From an uncultured Enterobacterales bacterium (GTDB lineage Bacteria > Myxococcota_A > UBA796): a DNA stretch of 47,860 nt. The notes below the pieces were generated by a model. It saw nothing but the letters and a program-made list of their open reading frames with translations. It was not told the origin of the DNA and made no database searches. The position numbers and the translations under genes are program-made. The stretch is taken from contig CAZKOI010000001.1 in assembly GCA_964554315.1 (NCBI GenBank), forward strand, positions 1-47,860, in the 5' to 3' direction. Below are positions 23,739-46,327 of the stretch, piece by piece (within the stretch, counting starts at the first letter, position 1; each line of letters starts with the position of its first letter).

Positions 23739-24308
23739 ATGCGAATTTTTCTCTTCGTCCTCAGCGCAGGATGCACGCCGCACCTGGAGAGCGAGCCTCG
23801 AGCCACCTGTGGTGGTGAGGAGCTGGAGAACAGCTGGGAGAAGTCTGCTCCACCCGTCGCACTTGAGGGCGAGGGATTCTCGCGAGGTTCGGTCGTGCCC
23901 GACTTCTGCCTCGAGGATCAAAACGGAGACAGGACCTCCCTCTGGCAGTTCTACGGCGACGTGATTTTGTTGGACATCTCCACCATGTGGTGCGGCCCCT
24001 GCCAGCAGATCGCGAAGGACGTGGAGGAGACTTGGCACGACTATTCGGAGGAAGGCTTCACCTACATCACCGTTCTTCCCGAGGACCTCGAAGGAGGCCA
24101 GGTCGATCGCGCTGACCTCCAAGAGTGGTCTGAAGAGTTCGGAATTACGGCGCCCATTCTCGCGGACAACGAGGGCTTTGGCTACAGCGTTGAGCCTGAG
24201 CGGGCTTGGCCCGTCGTGATGTTGATCGATCGCAAGATGTCGGTGCTCGTCGAGAGGATTGCGCCCAACGACCACGCCATTCGAGAGGCGATCGAAGCCG
24301 CGCTCTGA
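23739..24308 (+). CDS. Thioredoxin-fold thiol:disulfide oxidoreductase lipoprotein (TlpA/redoxin-like), Cys form
   Basis: Lipobox MRIFLFVLSAGC and redox motif WCGPC in a redoxin-like context (VVPDFCLEDQNGDR...VILLDISTMWCGPCQ). Confidence 0.85.
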   Translation: MRIFLFVLSAGCTPHLESEPRATCGGEELENSWEKSAPPVALEGEGFSRGSVVPDFCLEDQNGDRTSLWQFYGDVILLDISTMWCGPCQQIAKDVEETWHDYSEEGFTYITVLPEDLEGGQVDRADLQEWSEEFGITAPILADNEGFGYSVEPERAWPVVMLIDRKMSVLVERIAPNDHAIREAIEAAL

Positions 24309-39519: not shown

Positions 39520-40362
39520 ATGCGCGGCCTCATTTCTTTGATTCTGATCGCATGCGGTGATGTGAAGGACGCCGCCGAGGATACCGAGGCCGTGCTTGCG
39601 TCGGATGCCGATGCGGACGCGGACGCTGATTCCGACGCTGATTCCGACGCTGATTCCGATACCGATGCTGACGCTGACGCTGACGCTGACGCTGATGCCG
39701 ATGCCGACGCCGATGCCGACGCCGATGCGGACGCGGACGCCGATGCCGATGCCGACGCGGACGCCGATGCCGACGCGGACGCCGATGCGGACGCCGACGC
39801 GGACGCCGATGCCGACGCGGACGCCGATGCCGATGCCGATGGCGACACACCCCTGCGGGAGTACATCGGCGGATACCCCGTCAATCCCTGTGAGAGTACG
39901 CCCTCTCCGACGGGCTACGGCGTGGGCCAGATCGTGCCTGACTTCGCCCTGGTCGATCAGCACGGCGAGGAGGTCCGGCTCTCTGACTTCTGTGGGTCAG
40001 TGGTCCTCCTCGAGACAGCGGCCTTCTGGTGAGGCTCCTGCGCGGCAAGCGCACCGGGTCTGGATGACCTGTACGACACCTACCGAGACCGTGGCTTTGT
40101 GGTCATGTCACTCATGATCGAGAACTGGGCCGGGGGTATTCCCTCGGTCAGTGAGCTCGGCTCCTGGGCCTCGTCCTACGGAATGTCGTCTCCCGTCTTG
40201 GCCGATGCCGGGATGGGCGTGACCTCCCAGTTCATCTGGGCGGACGGGGTGACGTCATTCGCACTTCCGTCCAAGCACCTCATCGGGCCCGGGATGGAGG
40301 TCTTGGCCATCAATGAGGCGCACATCCCAGCCTCGCTCATCGAGGCTCATCTGCCCGATTAG
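39520..40362 (+). CDS. Thioredoxin-fold (TlpA/redoxin-like) lipoprotein with (Asp-Ala)n linker and in-frame TGA at the CxxC position. Candidate selenoprotein; alternatively a nonsense pseudogene.
   Basis: ORFs 39520-40032 and 40099-40362 are in the same frame and separated only by TGA 40030-40032. Read-through gives ...[10 protein letters not shown]-[TGA]-GSCAAS..., a W-U-G-S-C redox motif. From VPDF to the motif it aligns without gaps to the WCGPC of the paralog at 23739-24308. Lipobox LILIAC. Confidence 0.55.
39604..39846 (+). repeat. Imperfect hexanucleotide tandem repeat (GAY-GCN)n encoding ~81 aa of Asp-Ala/Asp-Ser dipeptides
   Basis: Codons 29-109 of the gene read [26 protein letters not shown]...DADGD. 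Synonymous variation (gat/gac, gcc/gcg/gct) breaks the perfect DNA identity. Confidence 0.95.
40030..40071 (+). other. In-frame UGA plus downstream candidate SECIS-like hairpins
   Basis: Hairpin A (40036-40058): stem TGCGC/GCGCA with loop GGCAA, extendable by 3 bp across a CC bulge. Hairpin B (40055-40071): CGGGTC/GACCTG (one G-U pair) with loop TGGAT, starting 28 nt after the UGA. The two are mutually exclusive and were paired by eye only. Confidence 0.35.
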
Positions 40363-40406: not shown

Positions 40407-41294
40407 TCACTCCTCTCTCGGCCGAGCCCGGATACCATTGTAGTAGTCATCGGCGTACGTCTCACCGGGGGTGCACGTGCTCGAGTACTCCTCAAAGCAC
40501 CGGACCTCCATGTTGAAGTAGAGGGTCCGCTCTGTCGCCCCGAGATCGCAGTCCCACTCCCCGGGGGTGGCTTTCTGGCTCCAATTGAGCGACGACGGGT
40601 TGGGATTTGGGCTCAGCAGGCGGCAGCGAGGAGAGTCGTCCACCTGCTCTCCTCCGGGCACCACCGAGAACCACCCGTGCCAATAGAGCCCGCTGGCATG
40701 CAGACCGGGCATGTTGTTGGTGATCTCGGCCGTACCGGAGCGCCCAATCGCATTGGCGGTGAAGGGCAGGGAGAGAATCTTGCCGCTCGGAATTCGGAGA
40801 TCATTCGTCCAATAGCTGGCCCCCAGCGACCAATTGTCGAGGTGAATCTCCGGGTCACAGACCACCCGCTCGGCGACCTCCGCGGGCACACCGCTGCAGT
40901 ACGCTGCGGGCTCCGGTATGGCCTCTTCGAAGACGGCAATGACCGAGCAGTCCTGCGTCACCGGTGCCGTCCTGAACTGAAGCCCCTCCACACTGCCGCC
41001 GCACGTGCCCGTGACAGCTGCCAATCCCCACCCCTCGTCGGGCGTCACATCAACCCGAAGCACCCGCCCGTCATTGACCCTCACATCGCCGACCGGCGTG
41101 GCGAACCCGCCACCGCTCACGGACGTCGATACCGTGTGCCAGACCGCGTCCTCTCCGGTGTCAGTCGACTGCGGGGCTCCGGTGTCGAGCGAGGTTGGTT
41201 TATCCGAGCCGCTGTCGCTGGACGCCGCTTTATCGCTCTGGCATCCCGTCATGAGACCCAGACATAGGGTGATCATAGAGGTCTTAAACGGCAT
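40407..41294 (-). CDS. Lipoprotein with divergent InlB B-repeat-like domain and Cys-rich C-terminal domain of unknown function
   Basis: An ATG at 41294 is preceded by GGAGAG, with lipobox LGLMTGC and an S/D/T-rich linker. The B-repeat-like segment is VSGGGFATPVGDVRVNDGRVLRVDVTPDEGWGLAAVTGTCGG...VIAVF. The mature part has 8 further Cys. Confidence 0.65.
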   Translation of the reverse strand: MPFKTSMITLCLGLMTGCQSDKAASSDSGSDKPTSLDTGAPQSTDTGEDAVWHTVSTSVSGGGFATPVGDVRVNDGRVLRVDVTPDEGWGLAAVTGTCGGSVEGLQFRTAPVTQDCSVIAVFEEAIPEPAAYCSGVPAEVAERVVCDPEIHLDNWSLGASYWTNDLRIPSGKILSLPFTANAIGRSGTAEITNNMPGLHASGLYWHGWFSVVPGGEQVDDSPRCRLLSPNPNPSSLNWSQKATPGEWDCDLGATERTLYFNMEVRCFEEYSSTCTPGETYADDYYNGIRARPREE

Positions 41295-41484
41295 GAGGAT
41301 CGTCTCTCCTGGGTCCAACTATTGGCGGCGATAAGCGCGGGTGGTCGTCGCTCCGTACCGGTGGAGCGGGACGCTCTCAGAAGGTATTCCCGGTTCGGAA
41401 GCTGACAACGGTGCAGTCGTCTAAGGCGCGTGCGGCCGAGGTTCGCTCTCGTGACCGGCTGCTTCATCGCCCCGTCACGCCCGT

Positions 41485-42243
41485 CTATGCTGGTTGTCGA
41501 AGGACCCCTACCGTGACATCCAGCGTCCCATCGGGAAACATCTCGATGGCATCCGGATAGCCCTCCAGGCCGTGCCGTCTCAAGGCACTCATGCACCGAT
41601 GCCATGAGTCTGGGGCGCCGAAGTGAAGCGCGATCGCGCGAGCCAGCTCGGTCGTTCCAGACCATCGCGCCTCGGAGACCCAGACCACGCTAGCGACCGA
41701 GCCGCGGCACCACCTCACGCCCCAGATGCCGGCTGCCCCGTGGTCGACCAGCGTCGCGACCTGCTCCGCGAGCGTGCCGCGAAGGTAGTGAAAGGGCGCG
41801 GACTGGTGTCGAGTGATCACGCTCCGTGCCCCCACCGGTACGGTGGCGATGAGACACATCAAGTCACCCGCGAATTCAGGGGGACGCAGCGCCTCGACAG
41901 CCGCAATGGCGCGGTGGTCCTGGAGGTCGTCGAGGTAGATCTCCGCGCCGTCCGACCCGTCGGTGTCTATCATGCGGCGCATGCCTGGAATCGATAGCGC
42001 GAGTAGATCACGCGTCTGGGCGCACGGCCACTGGCTCTGGACCGCCGTCGCCCAGGCCTCCGGCTCCCCTTGGTCGCTGACCGCCACACGGGGCGGGCGG
42101 TCCGTTACTCCAAAGGCCAGAATCGGGCCCACCTTGAAGTCTTCTATCAAGGGATCCGCGACTTCAGGTCGGATGAGCCGGGCTATCCTCGACGGTACCC
42201 CCGCTGGAAAGACAGCATCGAGCATCGCTTGGGTCGAGCTCAC
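41485..42243 (-). CDS. Hypothetical protein, translationally coupled to the radical SAM genes
   Basis: A 252-aa ORF whose start overlaps the stop of the upstream radical SAM gene by 4 nt. No signal peptide, TM helix or catalytic motif recognised. Confidence 0.6.
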   Translation of the reverse strand: MSSTQAMLDAVFPAGVPSRIARLIRPEVADPLIEDFKVGPILAFGVTDRPPRVAVSDQGEPEAWATAVQSQWPCAQTRDLLALSIPGMRRMIDTDGSDGAEIYLDDLQDHRAIAAVEALRPPEFAGDLMCLIATVPVGARSVITRHQSAPFHYLRGTLAEQVATLVDHGAAGIWGVRWCRGSVASVVWVSEARWSGTTELARAIALHFGAPDSWHRCMSALRRHGLEGYPDAIEMFPDGTLDVTVGVLRQPA

Positions 42244-43304
42244 GGCCAGCCCAGCTCTCGTCGCAGGGCCAAGATGGCCAGATCAATCGCGGCACCGAAG
42301 CGACAGTTTTCCTCAATGATCTGTCGCTCCTCGCTTCCCTCCGGATAGCTGCCGACCATCACATCATACAGCTCAGAGAGCGACCACCTCAGCGGGTCAA
42401 AGTGCACCGTTTCGCTGAGATGACCCCGCCAGTATGTCTCCTTGAGGCGAGGAAAGCGCCGCTCCAGGAAGATGGCTCCGTCATGGTAGATGCGACCGTC
42501 TACATCCACGATGAGATCATCGGACAGCATGACGGGCTCGCAGTCGCTCTTCCAATTGAACAACACCATCTCTTCAGCGTGAGCATGGTGATGGCGGAGT
42601 ACACGAAGAAGCGAGCCGATGTAGGCATCCATCTGCTCTTGGCTCCAGCGCATCCCCACCGCATAGTTAAGCTGAAGGCGTCGAACACCGGTCTCCAGGG
42701 CCCACTGATATCGCTCCATGCACGCGTCAGCGGCAGCAGGCGGCAGCACGGCATTCATGAACCACGGCACTCGGTGACCCTGCAGCAGCTTGATGGCGCG
42801 AGTCACGCCAGCATAGGCCTCCTCGTCAGAGCACAGGTGCGCCTGACGAAACCGGCGGTGAGCGAGCGCCGGGCCGTCGAGAGAGAACATGAGCATCACA
42901 GGATGCTCGGCCAAGAAGTCAAGCTGAGCCTCCGTGAGGCCCACACCGTTGGTGGTGAGGCAGATCTCGAGCTTTCGTCCTTCTCGCTCAGGGTGTGCGG
43001 ACACATAGCGAACCGCGTCCTCGAGCACCGACCAGCAGCGGGTCGGCTCGCCGCCAAAGAACTGAAGCTCAAGCCTGGGTCGGCTGGACTTCATCAACAG
43101 GTCGATGGCCCGTCGTGCATCCGACGACGCCAGCTCCGCCGCGCCCTCCATCTTGTCCACCAGACAGTAGCCGCAGCGGAGCTCACATGAGCGCGTCAAC
43201 ATGAGCATCAAGCGCTCAACGCCAGGTCCTTCTCCGAGGTTTACGCTGCCTCGGCGGAGGATCTGGCCGAGGCGCTTCTGTGCCTGATCGGGGGTCGGTA
43301 TCAC
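42240..43304 (-). CDS. Radical SAM protein (anSME/SPASM-family-like core without a C-terminal Cys cluster)
   Basis: CxxxCxxC motif in LMLTRSCELRCGYCLV and a GGEP block (LQFFGGEPT). The C-terminal region has the SPASM-like VDVDGRIYHDG but lacks the auxiliary-cluster cysteines. Confidence 0.85.
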   Translation of the reverse strand: MIPTPDQAQKRLGQILRRGSVNLGEGPGVERLMLMLTRSCELRCGYCLVDKMEGAAELASSDARRAIDLLMKSSRPRLELQFFGGEPTRCWSVLEDAVRYVSAHPEREGRKLEICLTTNGVGLTEAQLDFLAEHPVMLMFSLDGPALAHRRFRQAHLCSDEEAYAGVTRAIKLLQGHRVPWFMNAVLPPAAADACMERYQWALETGVRRLQLNYAVGMRWSQEQMDAYIGSLLRVLRHHHAHAEEMVLFNWKSDCEPVMLSDDLIVDVDGRIYHDGAIFLERRFPRLKETYWRGHLSETVHFDPLRWSLSELYDVMVGSYPEGSEERQIIEENCRFGAAIDLAILALRRELGWP

Positions 43305-44611
43305 GCGCGAAGCTCCACCGGTGGACGAGGCACGGGTGTCGACTCGGTCGGTTCAGGACCTCGAATCATCCGGAGCGCTTGGTGAACCTTGTCCAAGTCC
43401 GACTGGGTACAGTGAGTAAGACGAATCATCGCCTCGCCTGCCCCAAAGGGCTGATCAACATAGCGCTCGATCAGCAGATCATTCGCCTCGCAGAGTTGGT
43501 ACAACCTCGTCCATCGCTCGGGGGTGTAGTACTTCCAGCTCAGCTCACCCGCCCCGACCTCTCGCGCCATGCGGACCGTCGCGGCCAGGTGTTGGGGAGT
43601 CTCGAAGGGAAGGCCCATGATGAAGCTCGCATGAACCGTGATGCCTGAATCCTCGAGACGCCTGACCGCCTCGAGCGCCGCGGCGTTGGTAAAGGGCTTG
43701 TCCAAGAAGCGACGCCGATAGGCCTCATCGCCGCACTCCAGCCCGAGAACAGCATAGTCACAGCCCGCGCGCGCGAGATCGGCCACCAGCGTCTCCGTGA
43801 CCTGCTCCACCCGCAGCTGCACGGCGAGAGGCTGACCCACCTCGGATGCATAGGCCGAGCAAAATGAAGAGACCCATCGGCGGTCGAGCGGGAAGATGGC
43901 ATCCCAAGTAGCGAAGCCATGCTCCACCGAGACGGTCTGCATCGTTCGTTGCATCTCTGAGATGGTGCGATCGACGGAGCGAAGGGTCATGGATCCAGCG
44001 GTGGGTTGACCATGAAGTCGGCGGTAGCCATCAATGCCGCAGAAGGTGCAGGTAAAGGGACAGAAGCCACGAGATATTGCGACCCCCACCGCTTGCTCAT
44101 AGCGATTGCCCGCGTTGGTGAGATCCCCAAAGAGTCCTCGATCCCAGTCCGGCAGTCCGTCGACGTCGGCCACGCGGGGTCGCTGCACCGGATCGGCGGA
44201 CCCGCGCCGTAGGATGCCCGGGTGAGGAATGTCCGGCCGCTCGATCCACCCCAACAGCCCCGGCTCTCCCTCGCCAGCACAGACAGCGTCGACATCCAGC
44301 TGGGCGAGTGTCTCCGTCGGGTAGGTCGTGGGGTGTGCACCGCCGGCGATGACGCGTGCGTCCGGCAGTGCCGCGCGCAGAGCGGGCAGGACTTCCGCCA
44401 CCCGCTCAAAGCGACAGGTCATGAAGCTCAACCCCACCACCTCCGCAGCGCTCTGCTGGGCGGCCTGCTGGATCTCAGCGCAGGTCGCCTCGTCCTGAAT
44501 GGTCAGCAACTCGACGCTGTGGCCCGCCTCCTTGAGCCAGGCCGAGAGAGCGGCTATCGAGCTGTTGAACTGCACCCCTGCCTGGGCGGTATGGACGAAG
44601 AGGACATTCAT
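43301..44611 (-). CDS. B12-binding-domain radical SAM protein (class B-like)
   Basis: N-terminal cobalamin-binding-like Rossmann domain (MNVLFVHTAQ...VVGLSFMT...VIAGGAHPT), followed by ISRGFCPFTCTFCGI (CxxxCxxC). Confidence 0.85.
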   Translation of the reverse strand: MNVLFVHTAQAGVQFNSSIAALSAWLKEAGHSVELLTIQDEATCAEIQQAAQQSAAEVVGLSFMTCRFERVAEVLPALRAALPDARVIAGGAHPTTYPTETLAQLDVDAVCAGEGEPGLLGWIERPDIPHPGILRRGSADPVQRPRVADVDGLPDWDRGLFGDLTNAGNRYEQAVGVAISRGFCPFTCTFCGIDGYRRLHGQPTAGSMTLRSVDRTISEMQRTMQTVSVEHGFATWDAIFPLDRRWVSSFCSAYASEVGQPLAVQLRVEQVTETLVADLARAGCDYAVLGLECGDEAYRRRFLDKPFTNAAALEAVRRLEDSGITVHASFIMGLPFETPQHLAATVRMAREVGAGELSWKYYTPERWTRLYQLCEANDLLIERYVDQPFGAGEAMIRLTHCTQSDLDKVHQALRMIRGPEPTESTPVPRPPVELRA

Positions 44612-44636
44612 GGGTCAGAGCGTGTAGGGTAGCAGA

Positions 44637-45554
44637 GTGAACCAAGCAGACCACGAGGATCGTAGCATCGCGCGCCTGATGACGGCGTCGATCGCAGAGC
44701 AAGCCGAGACGATGGCGAGCTGGGGGATGGACCGGGTCGGCCTCTTGATTCTCATGAGCCCCTGTCACGGTCGGTGCATCTTCTGCGCCCAGCCCGCAGT
44801 CACTCACCCTCCGCCCGAGGACTGGACCCCTTGGACACAGGTCTCCCGCTACCTGGAGGGCAACCGTGCCGCCGCGCTGCGGGGCCTCTGCATCGGCGGA
44901 ACCGAGCCCACCAGTCATCCGGACTTCGCGCGCACCCTCGAGCTGGCCGGCGACGTAGGCTTCGAGCACATCGAGCTGATGACCTCAGGCCTGACCCTCA
45001 GCGAGCCGAACGTGGCCGAGGACTGGGTGGCCTCCGGCATACGCAGTGTCGCCGTGCCCATCTACGGACATGAGGCCCTTCATCACAACCGTGTGGTCGG
45101 GGTCCCTGCCTTTGACCGGCTCGTGGCGGGCCTGGATGCTGCTCGCCGTGCCGGAATCACCGTCCACGCTCACACCCTGGCGCTGGCGGAGACGCTCCCT
45201 ATTCTCGGGGATCTCGCCGAGTTCGTGACCTCGCGTTGGGGAACGCCGCTGACCCTCGCGCCCGCTCGACCGAAAGACGCTGTCTGGGACTACCGGGGGA
45301 GAGCCCCCAGCCTCGTGGACATCAGCCGCCACATCGACGGCGTGCCCGAGGCTCATCTCCAGCTGACGGGATGGCCTTCCTGCCTGACCCCCTCACGACG
45401 CCGCGGTGCCGCGACAGTGATGAGGCTGTATTTCCTGGGGCAATCTCGAAGCTTTCACCCATCCTGCAGCAACTGTCAGGCTCAGCCGTCGTGTCCCGGC
45501 GTTGTCAGCACGCTCCTTGAGCGCGATGGAGCCCGCGGCCTCACCCCCGCCTAG
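44637..45554 (+). CDS. Radical SAM protein with partial SPASM/twitch-like C-terminal Cys motif
   Basis: CxxxCxxC in LILMSPCHGRCIFCAQ and a GGTEPT block. The C-terminal CSNCQAQPSCPG gives CxxCxxxxxC. Start uncertain: GTG 44637, or ATG at 44679, 44712 or 44727. Confidence 0.8.
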   Translation: MNQADHEDRSIARLMTASIAEQAETMASWGMDRVGLLILMSPCHGRCIFCAQPAVTHPPPEDWTPWTQVSRYLEGNRAAALRGLCIGGTEPTSHPDFARTLELAGDVGFEHIELMTSGLTLSEPNVAEDWVASGIRSVAVPIYGHEALHHNRVVGVPAFDRLVAGLDAARRAGITVHAHTLALAETLPILGDLAEFVTSRWGTPLTLAPARPKDAVWDYRGRAPSLVDISRHIDGVPEAHLQLTGWPSCLTPSRRRGAATVMRLYFLGQSRSFHPSCSNCQAQPSCPGVVSTLLERDGARGLTPA

Positions 45555-45586: not shown

Positions 45587-46327
45587 TTGGCCTCAGGTGG
45601 TTCGATGTCCTCTCCCCTAATCGCATGCTTCTCCCTCCTCATCGCTCTCGTCTCGGGCACCGCCCAGGCCGAGACCCGCTGCGAGTGGCTTGAAGATCTG
45701 CCCAAGACCCCGTTCGATCAAGAGCAGGTGGTGGCCTGCCCCAATGAAGTGCTGGAGTATGTCTACTGGTACACCAACGGCATCCGTCGAAAGAGCCGGA
45801 CCTACGCCCAGATGGGCTCGGGCGTCTGGCGCTCGGCCAAGAGCCCTTACGCAACCGATGATCCCTGTGCCACGGGCTTCGTTCACCACAGCGACGGACA
45901 GCCCATGGGGGGCCTCCCCGAGGATGTTCGCTCTCGCTGGACAGAGCCCGACCCTGAGGTTCAGGAATTCAATGCGTTCTTGACCAAGGTTGGCACACCC
46001 GAGTGCGACATCAAGGACCCGAAGTACGGCTACTGGTGCCACCTCCTCGCGGACGCGCCGCCGACGGTCAAGCCCCTCGAGGAAGAAGGCGAGTCATGCC
46101 TGACAGCGGATCTTGAGGATCTGTATCAGTGCTTCCCCAAGCGCCGCTCGGTCACGGCAGCCTACCTGGCCGAGCAGACCAACAAGATGCTTCTCCTCGA
46201 GTGGCTCCTCATCCACCGGGTGGGCTTCGACCCCGCTCGACAATACCTGATCTCTCTTCCACAGGTCTCAACGCATCGCCGCGAGCTGAACCTGGTTGCC
46301 AAGTACCGCATCTGCACACGGGACTAA
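45587..46327 (+). CDS. Secreted Cys-rich protein of unknown function
   Basis: Signal peptide (MSSPLIACFSLLIALVSGTAQA), 8 Cys in the mature part and no recognised domain. It lies 32 nt downstream of the third radical SAM gene on the same strand. An alternative ATG is at 45605. Confidence 0.6.
   Translation: MASGGSMSSPLIACFSLLIALVSGTAQAETRCEWLEDLPKTPFDQEQVVACPNEVLEYVYWYTNGIRRKSRTYAQMGSGVWRSAKSPYATDDPCATGFVHHSDGQPMGGLPEDVRSRWTEPDPEVQEFNAFLTKVGTPECDIKDPKYGYWCHLLADAPPTVKPLEEEGESCLTADLEDLYQCFPKRRSVTAAYLAEQTNKMLLLEWLLIHRVGFDPARQYLISLPQVSTHRRELNLVAKYRICTRD

Follow-up and report, generated by a model that had tools for sequence, protein, structure and literature searches.

A conserved radical SAM cassette encoding a predicted PT-barrel protein in uncultured marine and Myxococcota-like bacteria

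A conserved, translationally coupled four-gene cassette

The window analysed here is the whole 47,860-nucleotide (nt) stretch at positions 1 to 47,860 of contig CAZKOI010000001.1, which it covers completely (assembly GCA_964554315.1; an uncultured Enterobacterales bacterium, placed by GTDB in Myxococcota_A, UBA796), in which three different radical S-adenosylmethionine (SAM) enzymes, A, B and D, and a fourth protein, C, are encoded together at 41485-45554 (~4.1 kb). This cassette, D|A-B-C, is a conserved, translationally coupled and self-contained unit of four narrow, co-distributed protein families. What is new here is an uncharacterised radical SAM-rich cassette with a previously unrecognised PT-barrel family, which resembles the tailoring gene sets of natural product pathways; our tentative reading is that it tailors an aromatic metabolite.

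Gene A (43301-44611, minus strand; 436 residues, motif CPFTCTFC) encodes a cobalamin-binding (class B) radical SAM enzyme, gene B (42240-43304, minus strand; 354 residues, motif CELRCGYC) a radical SAM enzyme lacking a SPASM domain, and gene C (41485-42243, minus strand; 252 residues) a protein with a predicted PT-barrel (ABBA prenyltransferase) fold. On the minus strand, the A/B and B/C junctions each consist of a 4-nt GTGA start/stop overlap. Divergent from A lies gene D (44637-45554, plus strand; 305 residues), encoding a twitch-type radical SAM enzyme with the motif CHGRCIFC and a C-terminal CSNCQAQPSC sequence. The open reading frames (ORFs), coordinates, motifs and overlaps given in an earlier note on this DNA, which was made from the sequence alone, were all re-found exactly as placed. 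That note had put the gap between A and D at 25-90 nt depending on the start codon chosen. The long, 305-residue form of D is the likely one, because the public gene call (P0199) has the same length and the N-terminal residues align in relatives; the spacer then measures 25 nt (44612-44636), between the ATG of A at 44611 and the GTG of D at 44637. Since the spacer is so short, both here and in relatives (25-33 nt in those loci of tier 1, defined below, where both protein ends could be mapped), we infer that the promoters of A and D must lie largely within neighbouring coding sequence. Screening of the window with Rfam at the gathering threshold revealed neither riboswitches nor other RNA elements.

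For comparison, 40 loci were gathered by exact-protein-sequence look-ups and two collection scans, and the reference proteins were mapped onto them by tblastn; gene calls in related loci are the tblastn and ORF mappings made in this analysis. Tier 1, in which A is 65-99% identical to that of the window, comprises ~11 distinct lineages, most of them on short contigs from metagenomes (the window with L004, L001, L002/L026, L003, L005/L006, L020, L021, L022/L037/L038, L023, L024/L025 and L039/L040). Tier 2, with A being 51-57% identical, comprises ~10 lineages, including Polyangiaceae and other deltaproteobacterial metagenome-assembled genomes (MAGs) in GTDB.

The D|A-B-C order with the same 4-nt overlaps was found in tier 1 wherever the contig was long enough, and the A-B-D trio recurred in the ~10 lineages of tier 2, the hosts together amounting to ~20 uncultured marine and Myxococcota-like bacteria. 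Given the same order, overlaps and short spacer in ~11 lineages and the trio in ~10 more, the clustering of D, A, B and C is far beyond chance. The three radical SAM genes are co-located on many other contigs, and the statement of the earlier note that their order matches no known system held up. The tier 1 flanks, on the other hand, are unrelated between lineages and encode NHL-repeat proteins, heme o synthase with SCO1, DUF1501/PSCyt proteins and others. A, C and D each form a narrow family, and these families are found together: that of A comprises ~55 clusters at ≥51% identity, followed by an abrupt fall to 28%, and that of D comprises 37 clusters, all at ≥38% identity. Among GTDB representative genomes, the C family has 0 copies, and relatives of A occur only at ≤57% identity. 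One further B-like radical SAM gene lies 0-5 kb downstream of the cassette in L003, L023 and L037.

Two tier 1 loci are of note for their assemblies. In L003 (an ENA contig with a coverage of 0.036), the cassette is present with all genes fragmented and an r633-like radical SAM gene (see below) after C; the fragmentation most likely reflects a low-coverage assembly with frameshifts rather than pseudogenes. The copy in L001 lies on contig JAANSZ013768496.1 of GCA_024449875.1, and the contig numbering of more than 13 million points to an assembly of very large size (host or environmental) in which bacterial contigs are contained.

A predicted PT-barrel fold of protein C

Protein C was an "unknown protein" of 252 residues in the earlier note; it is present and belongs to no known sequence family, but its fold had been overlooked. 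No Pfam or NCBIfam match was obtained at E < 0.01, including PTase_Orf2 and Trp_DMAT, and profile-based comparison with the PDB (E ≤ 10) returned zero prenyltransferases. In an AlphaFold model (predicted local distance difference test score, pLDDT, 94.3; predicted template modelling score, pTM, 0.91), five β-hairpins with helices between them form a 10-stranded barrel. When this model was compared with the PDB using Foldseek, the top 31 matches were all ABBA aromatic prenyltransferases (probability 0.98-1.0, template modelling (TM) score 0.46-0.57), and the next match followed at E = 0.12. NphB/Orf2, MpnD, AmbP1/AmbP3, EpzP, DMATS1, AtaPT, FamD1, CymD and CloQ are among them. From the model, C is predicted with high confidence to possess the PT-barrel (ABBA prenyltransferase) fold. 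With C recognised as a PT-barrel protein, the most likely chemistry of the cassette changes from that proposed in the earlier note.

C founds a small sequence family of ~100 representatives, a PT-barrel family that is undetected by sequence methods. There are 17 close relatives among 5.8 billion proteins, and of 1.84 billion cluster representatives searched with a hidden Markov model (HMM), 100 were matched. An alignment of 60 diverse members shows invariance of R52, R89 and D105 and near-invariance of D93, D106, R177, E191, R193, Y229 and D231, with the conserved Arg, Asp, Tyr and Glu positions all being located on predicted strands. This conservation looks enzyme-like and would fit a putative diphosphate/Mg2+ site.

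ABBA prenyltransferases are the only significant structural matches of C, which is predicted to share their 10-stranded antiparallel barrel of five repeats. Unlike these enzymes, C shows no detectable sequence similarity to them, is ~50 residues shorter, has an unusually acidic predicted barrel interior (D93, D105, D106, D231, E191), and is always encoded with radical SAM enzymes and translationally coupled to one. We know of no described ABBA prenyltransferase with such a constant, translationally coupled association.

Domain additions were observed within the family. About 10 members of 480-500 residues (including P0128, P0140, P0147, P0149, P0154, P0168 and P0170) carry an extra C-terminal domain of ~240 residues, unmatched in Pfam and with an acidic DDDD tail at its end, and P0101 carries an N-terminal YjbR domain instead.

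Family placement of the radical SAM enzymes A, B and D

Pfam analysis of A revealed a B12-binding domain (PF02310, 71.5 bits; cutoff 32.1) and a Radical_SAM domain (PF04055, 56.9 bits). With the B12-binding domain at the N-terminus followed by a radical SAM core with a CX3CX2C motif (C184/C188/C191), A conforms to the definition of class B radical SAM enzymes and shares this architecture with BchE, HpnJ/HpnR, PhpK, ApyD/PoyC, TokK and BzaD. The class B families scored were BchE, HpnJ, HpnR, PhpK, ApyD, BzaD, AprD4, MCR glutamine methylase and the ladderane B12-radical SAM enzyme. Since the best NCBIfam score was 85.5 bits for BchE against a cutoff of 481, and the remaining families gave ≤78 bits with cutoffs of 251-750, A belongs to no equivalog; the isolation of its own family likewise sets it apart from the characterised class B enzymes. 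Remote PDB sequence matches were AprD4 and TokK. The reaction of A may be a methylation, a cyclisation or a rearrangement.

In D, the Radical_SAM domain was confirmed by Pfam. Seven cysteines are invariant in 17-29 homologues, namely C43/C47/C50 of the cluster motif and C249, C277, C280 and C286 in the C-terminal part. This bears out the partial SPASM/twitch motif described in the earlier note, and D appears from its sequence to be a twitch-like radical SAM enzyme with a predicted four-cysteine auxiliary-cluster site C-terminal to the core. Curated NCBIfam families were matched far below their cutoffs (HxsC4, 69 bits, cutoff 500; HxsC, 57.7 bits, cutoff 267.9), and the sole PDB sequence match was a remote one to GDGT-MAS (E = 0.002). 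The predicted model (pLDDT 94.5) had BlsE, MoaA, GDGT-MAS and SuiB as the top Foldseek matches (GDGT-MAS ranking fourth), at TM scores of 0.5-0.57 and 15-19% identity, indicative of a generic twitch-type radical SAM fold. With the small-molecule twitch enzymes BlsE, MoaA and BtrN, D shares a partial TIM-barrel core and the C-terminal four-cysteine site; at these TM scores and identities, their substrate-binding residues are not transferable to D.

B was likewise confirmed by Pfam as a Radical_SAM protein. Its closest curated NCBIfam families were PapB (106 bits, cutoff 340), QhpD (83, cutoff 453), HxsB (81.3, cutoff 370) and anSME (60, cutoff 349), and the matches to PapB, QhpD and HxsB cover the generic radical SAM core alone (residues ~29-240). 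By sequence, the core of B resembles the peptide-maturase/anSME type, in keeping with CteB and anSME as the remote PDB sequence matches. Only C40/C44/C47 (CX3CX2C) and C255 are conserved cysteines in 21 homologues; since a single invariant cysteine lies outside the cluster motif, B is without a SPASM or twitch cluster, as the earlier note had noticed from the missing SPASM cysteines. This cysteine, ~215 residues past the cluster motif, resembles the hydrogen-donor cysteine of radical SAM epimerases. Taken together, none of the three enzymes falls into a characterised family, A, B and D all remaining far below the NCBIfam cutoffs.

Larger radical SAM-rich clusters and an associated halogenase

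In tier 2, the loci retain A-B, with D usually adjacent, and contain additional genes. These encode r341 and r633, which are paralogous to B (28% identity), a twitch/SPASM radical SAM enzyme (r366), a HemN-like radical SAM enzyme (r606), and r740, a 740-residue B12-radical SAM enzyme fused to a D-like domain in which the four-cysteine site is kept and a second SAM-cluster motif is absent. As a Rosetta-stone fusion, r740 links A-type and D-type modules; together with the paralogy, it suggests that A-, B- and D-type modules work as one duplicated unit. In family comparisons, r341 and r633 come closest to peptide maturases, comprising PapB (83-125 bits across B, r341 and r633), SCIFF/CteB, QhpD, the Nif11-type maturase and HxsB. 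The N-terminal ~300 residues of r633, to which no domain is assigned, were considered as a hidden PT barrel and gave no HMM signal.

The largest set was found in L007 (6779-20665 of JGI Ga0268298_10000601), where eight radical SAM genes are packed into ~14 kb (D-like, A-like, B-like, r341, r366, r740, r606 and r633), and 0/8 of the products reached any curated family cutoff. The same cluster is present in L012, a Polyangiaceae MAG contig (JAXLYN010000036).

Homologues of C (32-38% identity) were found in L014, L016, L027 and L030, whereas a six-frame HMM search detected none in L007, L009, L011 and L032. C is therefore a frequent accessory outside the invariant core A-B-D, and D|A-B-C is the minimal form of a radical SAM-rich cluster family of marine and Myxococcota-like bacteria.

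A flavin-dependent halogenase of the CndH/CmlS type is encoded within the cluster in L014 (17450-18922, minus strand), L016 (18848-20167, minus strand), L030 (6146-7402, plus strand; directly upstream of C) and L031 (2399-3160, plus strand). Its best PDB match is myxobacterial CndH (3e1t, 202 bits), followed by 8zop (an unnamed halogenase), CmlS and PltA. The WxWxIP motif is kept (GWVWFIP), as is a lysine aligned with the CndH lysine that we take to be catalytic. Assignment of this flavoenzyme as a QhpG/LodB-type tryptophan hydroxylase or a geranylgeranyl reductase was rejected on the basis of the scores (202-144 bits for CndH/CmlS/PltA versus 60 for QhpG and 46 for the reductase). An apparently conserved stretch upstream of the halogenase gene, followed up as a hidden ORF, turned out to be the antisense strand of a B12-radical SAM gene.

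The A copy of L016 (10001-10935) reaches only 35% in its alignment over residues 54-317, B, C and D being normal and no run of N being present; it may be degraded or replaced.

Absence of a conserved precursor and proposed role of the cassette

Across both tiers, every ORF of at least 25 residues in 18 loci was compared all-against-all, and no conserved precursor was found; apart from L004, no such ORF outside A-D is common to the window locus and other lineages. In more than 20 lineages, neither precursor candidates nor conserved short ORFs were present at distances of up to 10 kb. These small-ORF comparisons agree with the earlier note, which had seen no convincing precursor ORF for a ribosomally synthesised, post-translationally modified peptide (RiPP) near the cluster. 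Genuine intergenic gaps are few in the window and hold only genes for FabZ, an HspQ-like protein and a TlpA-like lipoprotein. A PqqD-like RiPP recognition element (RRE) was not matched among A-D in the Pfam scan, and the radical SAM motif starts at residue 40 in B and 43 in D, too close to the N-terminus for an RRE to fit in front of it. Genes for a leader peptidase or for export are not conserved around the cassette.

Our tentatively favoured reading of D|A-B-C is that of a biosynthetic cassette, self-contained and conserved vertically, that tailors an aromatic metabolite encoded elsewhere; in this proposal, substrate and product are inferred. Halogenases and ABBA prenyltransferases both target electron-rich aromatic rings, and the recurring partners other than radical SAM enzymes comprise one PT-barrel enzyme and one halogenase of the phenol/pyrrole type, so that a ring of this kind is probably present in the substrate. 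It would not be encoded by the cassette and would most likely be a free metabolite derived from tryptophan or tyrosine, or a quinone-like one. A free aromatic metabolite is favoured because precursor, recognisable RRE, protease and exporter are lacking, because the fold of D is nearest to small-molecule twitch enzymes, and because the significant fold matches of C are all small-molecule prenyltransferases. At an unactivated carbon, A would carry out C-methylation or a rearrangement by methylcobalamin-dependent radical chemistry, and B and D would abstract hydrogen by means of the 5'-deoxyadenosyl radical, leading to C-C or C-X bond formation or to oxidation. C would bind prenyl diphosphate in its Arg/Asp/Tyr-lined barrel and transfer the prenyl group to the aromatic ring. 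The evidence thereby points in the direction of what the earlier note had kept as its fallback, a small molecule or lipid.

Several observations weigh against this proposal. C is likened to prenyltransferases by fold only (TM ~0.5) and not by sequence, and its absence from about half of the distant clusters implies that prenyl transfer is not the core chemistry. Genes for a scaffold-forming enzyme or for isoprenoid supply are not conserved near the cassette. CndH-type halogenases often act on tethered substrates. Furthermore, by sequence B, r341 and r633 match peptide maturases best (PapB, CteB, QhpD and HxsB), and the best match of D is HxsC, a protein modifier (PMC13128918).

These matches lead to RiPP or protein maturation with the precursor encoded in trans, in which a peptide C-methylated by A would be epimerised, crosslinked or oxidised by B and D (joined by r341 and r633 in the larger clusters) and prenylated by C, and in some relatives also chlorinated by the halogenase. 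Clusters with many radical SAM genes are typical of RiPPs, the invariant cysteine of B-type enzymes resembles the epimerase hydrogen donor, and cyanobactin F-type prenyltransferases do prenylate peptides. D is nearest to HxsC by sequence, and HxsB/HxsC were shown to mature a protein effector (PMC13128918). The maturase matches, however, are confined to the generic radical SAM core and lie far under the cutoffs, the significant fold matches of C include no cyanobactin prenyltransferase, and B lacks a SPASM domain. Like the proteusin/polytheonamide (PoyB-D) and bottromycin clusters, the cassette combines several radical SAM enzymes, including a B12-dependent one, in a single operon; unlike them, it is without precursor gene, recognisable RRE, protease and transporter, and in the more than 20 lineages no short ORF up to 10 kb away takes the place of a precursor. 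We consider maturation of a peptide or protein encoded in trans to be possible, though rather unlikely.

The similarity to HxsB and HxsC also raises the question of a divergent HXS-like anti-phage defence system. HXS systems consist of an HxsA effector with His-Xaa-Ser repeats, an HxsD partner (LYW / LLNDYxLRE), HxsB and HxsC, in the order HxsD-B-C-A (PMC13128918). The cassette likewise pairs a PapB/HxsB-like radical SAM enzyme (B) with a short HxsC-like second-cluster radical SAM enzyme (D), both at low scores far under the cutoffs. In contrast to HXS, neither His-Xaa-Ser repeats nor the HxsD motif were found in all six frames of the window, the gene order differs, B lacks the SPASM cluster of HxsB, and a B12-radical SAM enzyme and a PT-barrel protein are added. 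PADLOC gave only generic viperin and radical SAM-core matches. This makes a defence function of the HXS kind extremely unlikely.

Modification of a lipid or isoprenoid was also weighed, where the PT barrel would hold a polyprenyl diphosphate or a prenylated lipid or quinone and the radical SAM enzymes would methylate, couple or cyclise the chain, by analogy with HpnP/HpnR/HpnJ, GrsA/B, Tes/Mss and the ladderane enzymes. B12-radical SAM and auxiliary-cluster radical SAM enzymes dominate known radical lipid chemistry (review PMC13459092), which counts for this explanation, as do the lack of a peptide precursor and the fact that the tetraether synthase GDGT-MAS is the sole PDB sequence match and a top fold match of D. 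The matches of A to lipid families are weak and far under the cutoffs, with 64.9 bits for HpnJ (cutoff 577.6), 44.4 for the ladderane B12-radical SAM enzyme (cutoff 360) and 26.1 for HpnR (cutoff 650), and the same holds for Tes (17.9 bits, cutoff 450). Lipid, hopanoid or isoprenoid genes are not conserved nearby. The UbiA prenyltransferase gene adjoining D in L002/L026 was examined as a partner and rejected; it encodes heme o synthase (278 bits, cutoff 210), belongs with the nearby SCO1 gene and is absent elsewhere. The associated flavoenzyme, moreover, has halogenase and not geranylgeranyl-reductase motifs. A lipid substrate therefore seems improbable to us.

Returning to the tailoring of an aromatic metabolite, a bolder variant is that A-B-D constitutes a new three-component radical SAM machine, which would build or rearrange a scaffold from a primary metabolite without a peptide precursor, and whose product would then be tailored by the PT-barrel enzyme and, in relatives, by the halogenase. 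Physical cooperation within A-B-D is supported by the Rosetta-stone fusion of A-like and D-like modules. We regard this variant as a speculative one with a small chance of being correct.

Neighbouring exported proteins

The cassette is flanked by E (45587-46327, plus strand), a secreted protein whose signal peptide precedes a mature part containing 8 Cys, and F (40407-41318, minus strand), a lipoprotein with the lipobox LMTGC and 8 further Cys, neither of which has a family match above cutoff in Pfam or NCBIfam. The earlier note had proposed that the radical SAM cluster matures one of these proteins and that, together with an XRE-cupin regulator and a TGA-containing oxidoreductase, it forms an envelope-maturation island (38.85-46.3 kb). 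In favour of this are the adjacency in the window and in L004, and the occurrence of two Gly-rich, Cys-rich lipoproteins between D and A in L007. The L007 proteins are not homologous to E, however, and such Cys-rich proteins are abundant in these genomes. Outside the window, L004 is the one locus with E and F beside the cassette; this contig belongs to the same species (99% identity) and is not long enough to extend to the regulator and the oxidoreductase gene. E and F lack homologues beside the cassette in any other lineage, and the flanks are unrelated in every one of these. Since the exported neighbours are shared only within the same species, the island is unsupported and we judge it very unlikely. 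We conclude that no functional tie connects the cassette with the exported proteins beside it.

The TGA-containing gene itself encodes a TlpA/ResA-like thiol-disulfide oxidoreductase lipoprotein (39520-40362, plus strand) with an in-frame TGA at 40030-40032. In the alignment, this codon falls precisely on the first Cys in the WCGPC motif of a paralogue within the window (23739-24308), giving FW-U-GS-C, and homology to the paralogue extends over both sides of the TGA (32% identity). By its sequence, the product is probably a selenoprotein. A hairpin following the UGA folded no better than shuffled sequence, and Rfam also gave nothing. In the same gene, a tandem repeat with periods of 6, 12, 30 and 42 nt (39604-39845) encodes a linker of ~80 residues, (Asp-Ala)n with some Asp-Ser.

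Implications

No description of a cluster of radical SAM and PT-barrel genes, nor of one combining radical SAM enzymes, an ABBA prenyltransferase and a halogenase in myxobacteria, was found in the literature. For annotation, a fold can be given to the "hypothetical protein" encoded last in the operon, and the exported neighbours should stay unlinked to the radical SAM genes. If the cassette is a biosynthetic unit, four co-evolving uncharacterised enzyme families are defined, one of them a PT-barrel family that is invisible to sequence searches. Beyond this, the cassette leads to a broader group of clusters, with as many as eight radical SAM genes, in Polyangiaceae and other deltaproteobacterial MAGs, and neither a product or substrate nor a published description was found for any of them. 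If the three-component machine proved real, the eight-gene clusters would, to our knowledge, be among the most radical SAM-dense non-RiPP pathways, and uncultured marine and Myxococcota-like bacteria would be the source of a metabolite or cofactor of a new class. The compact size of ~4.1 kb makes synthesis and expression easy, offering a tractable entry to B12 radical chemistry and to a new prenyltransferase scaffold.

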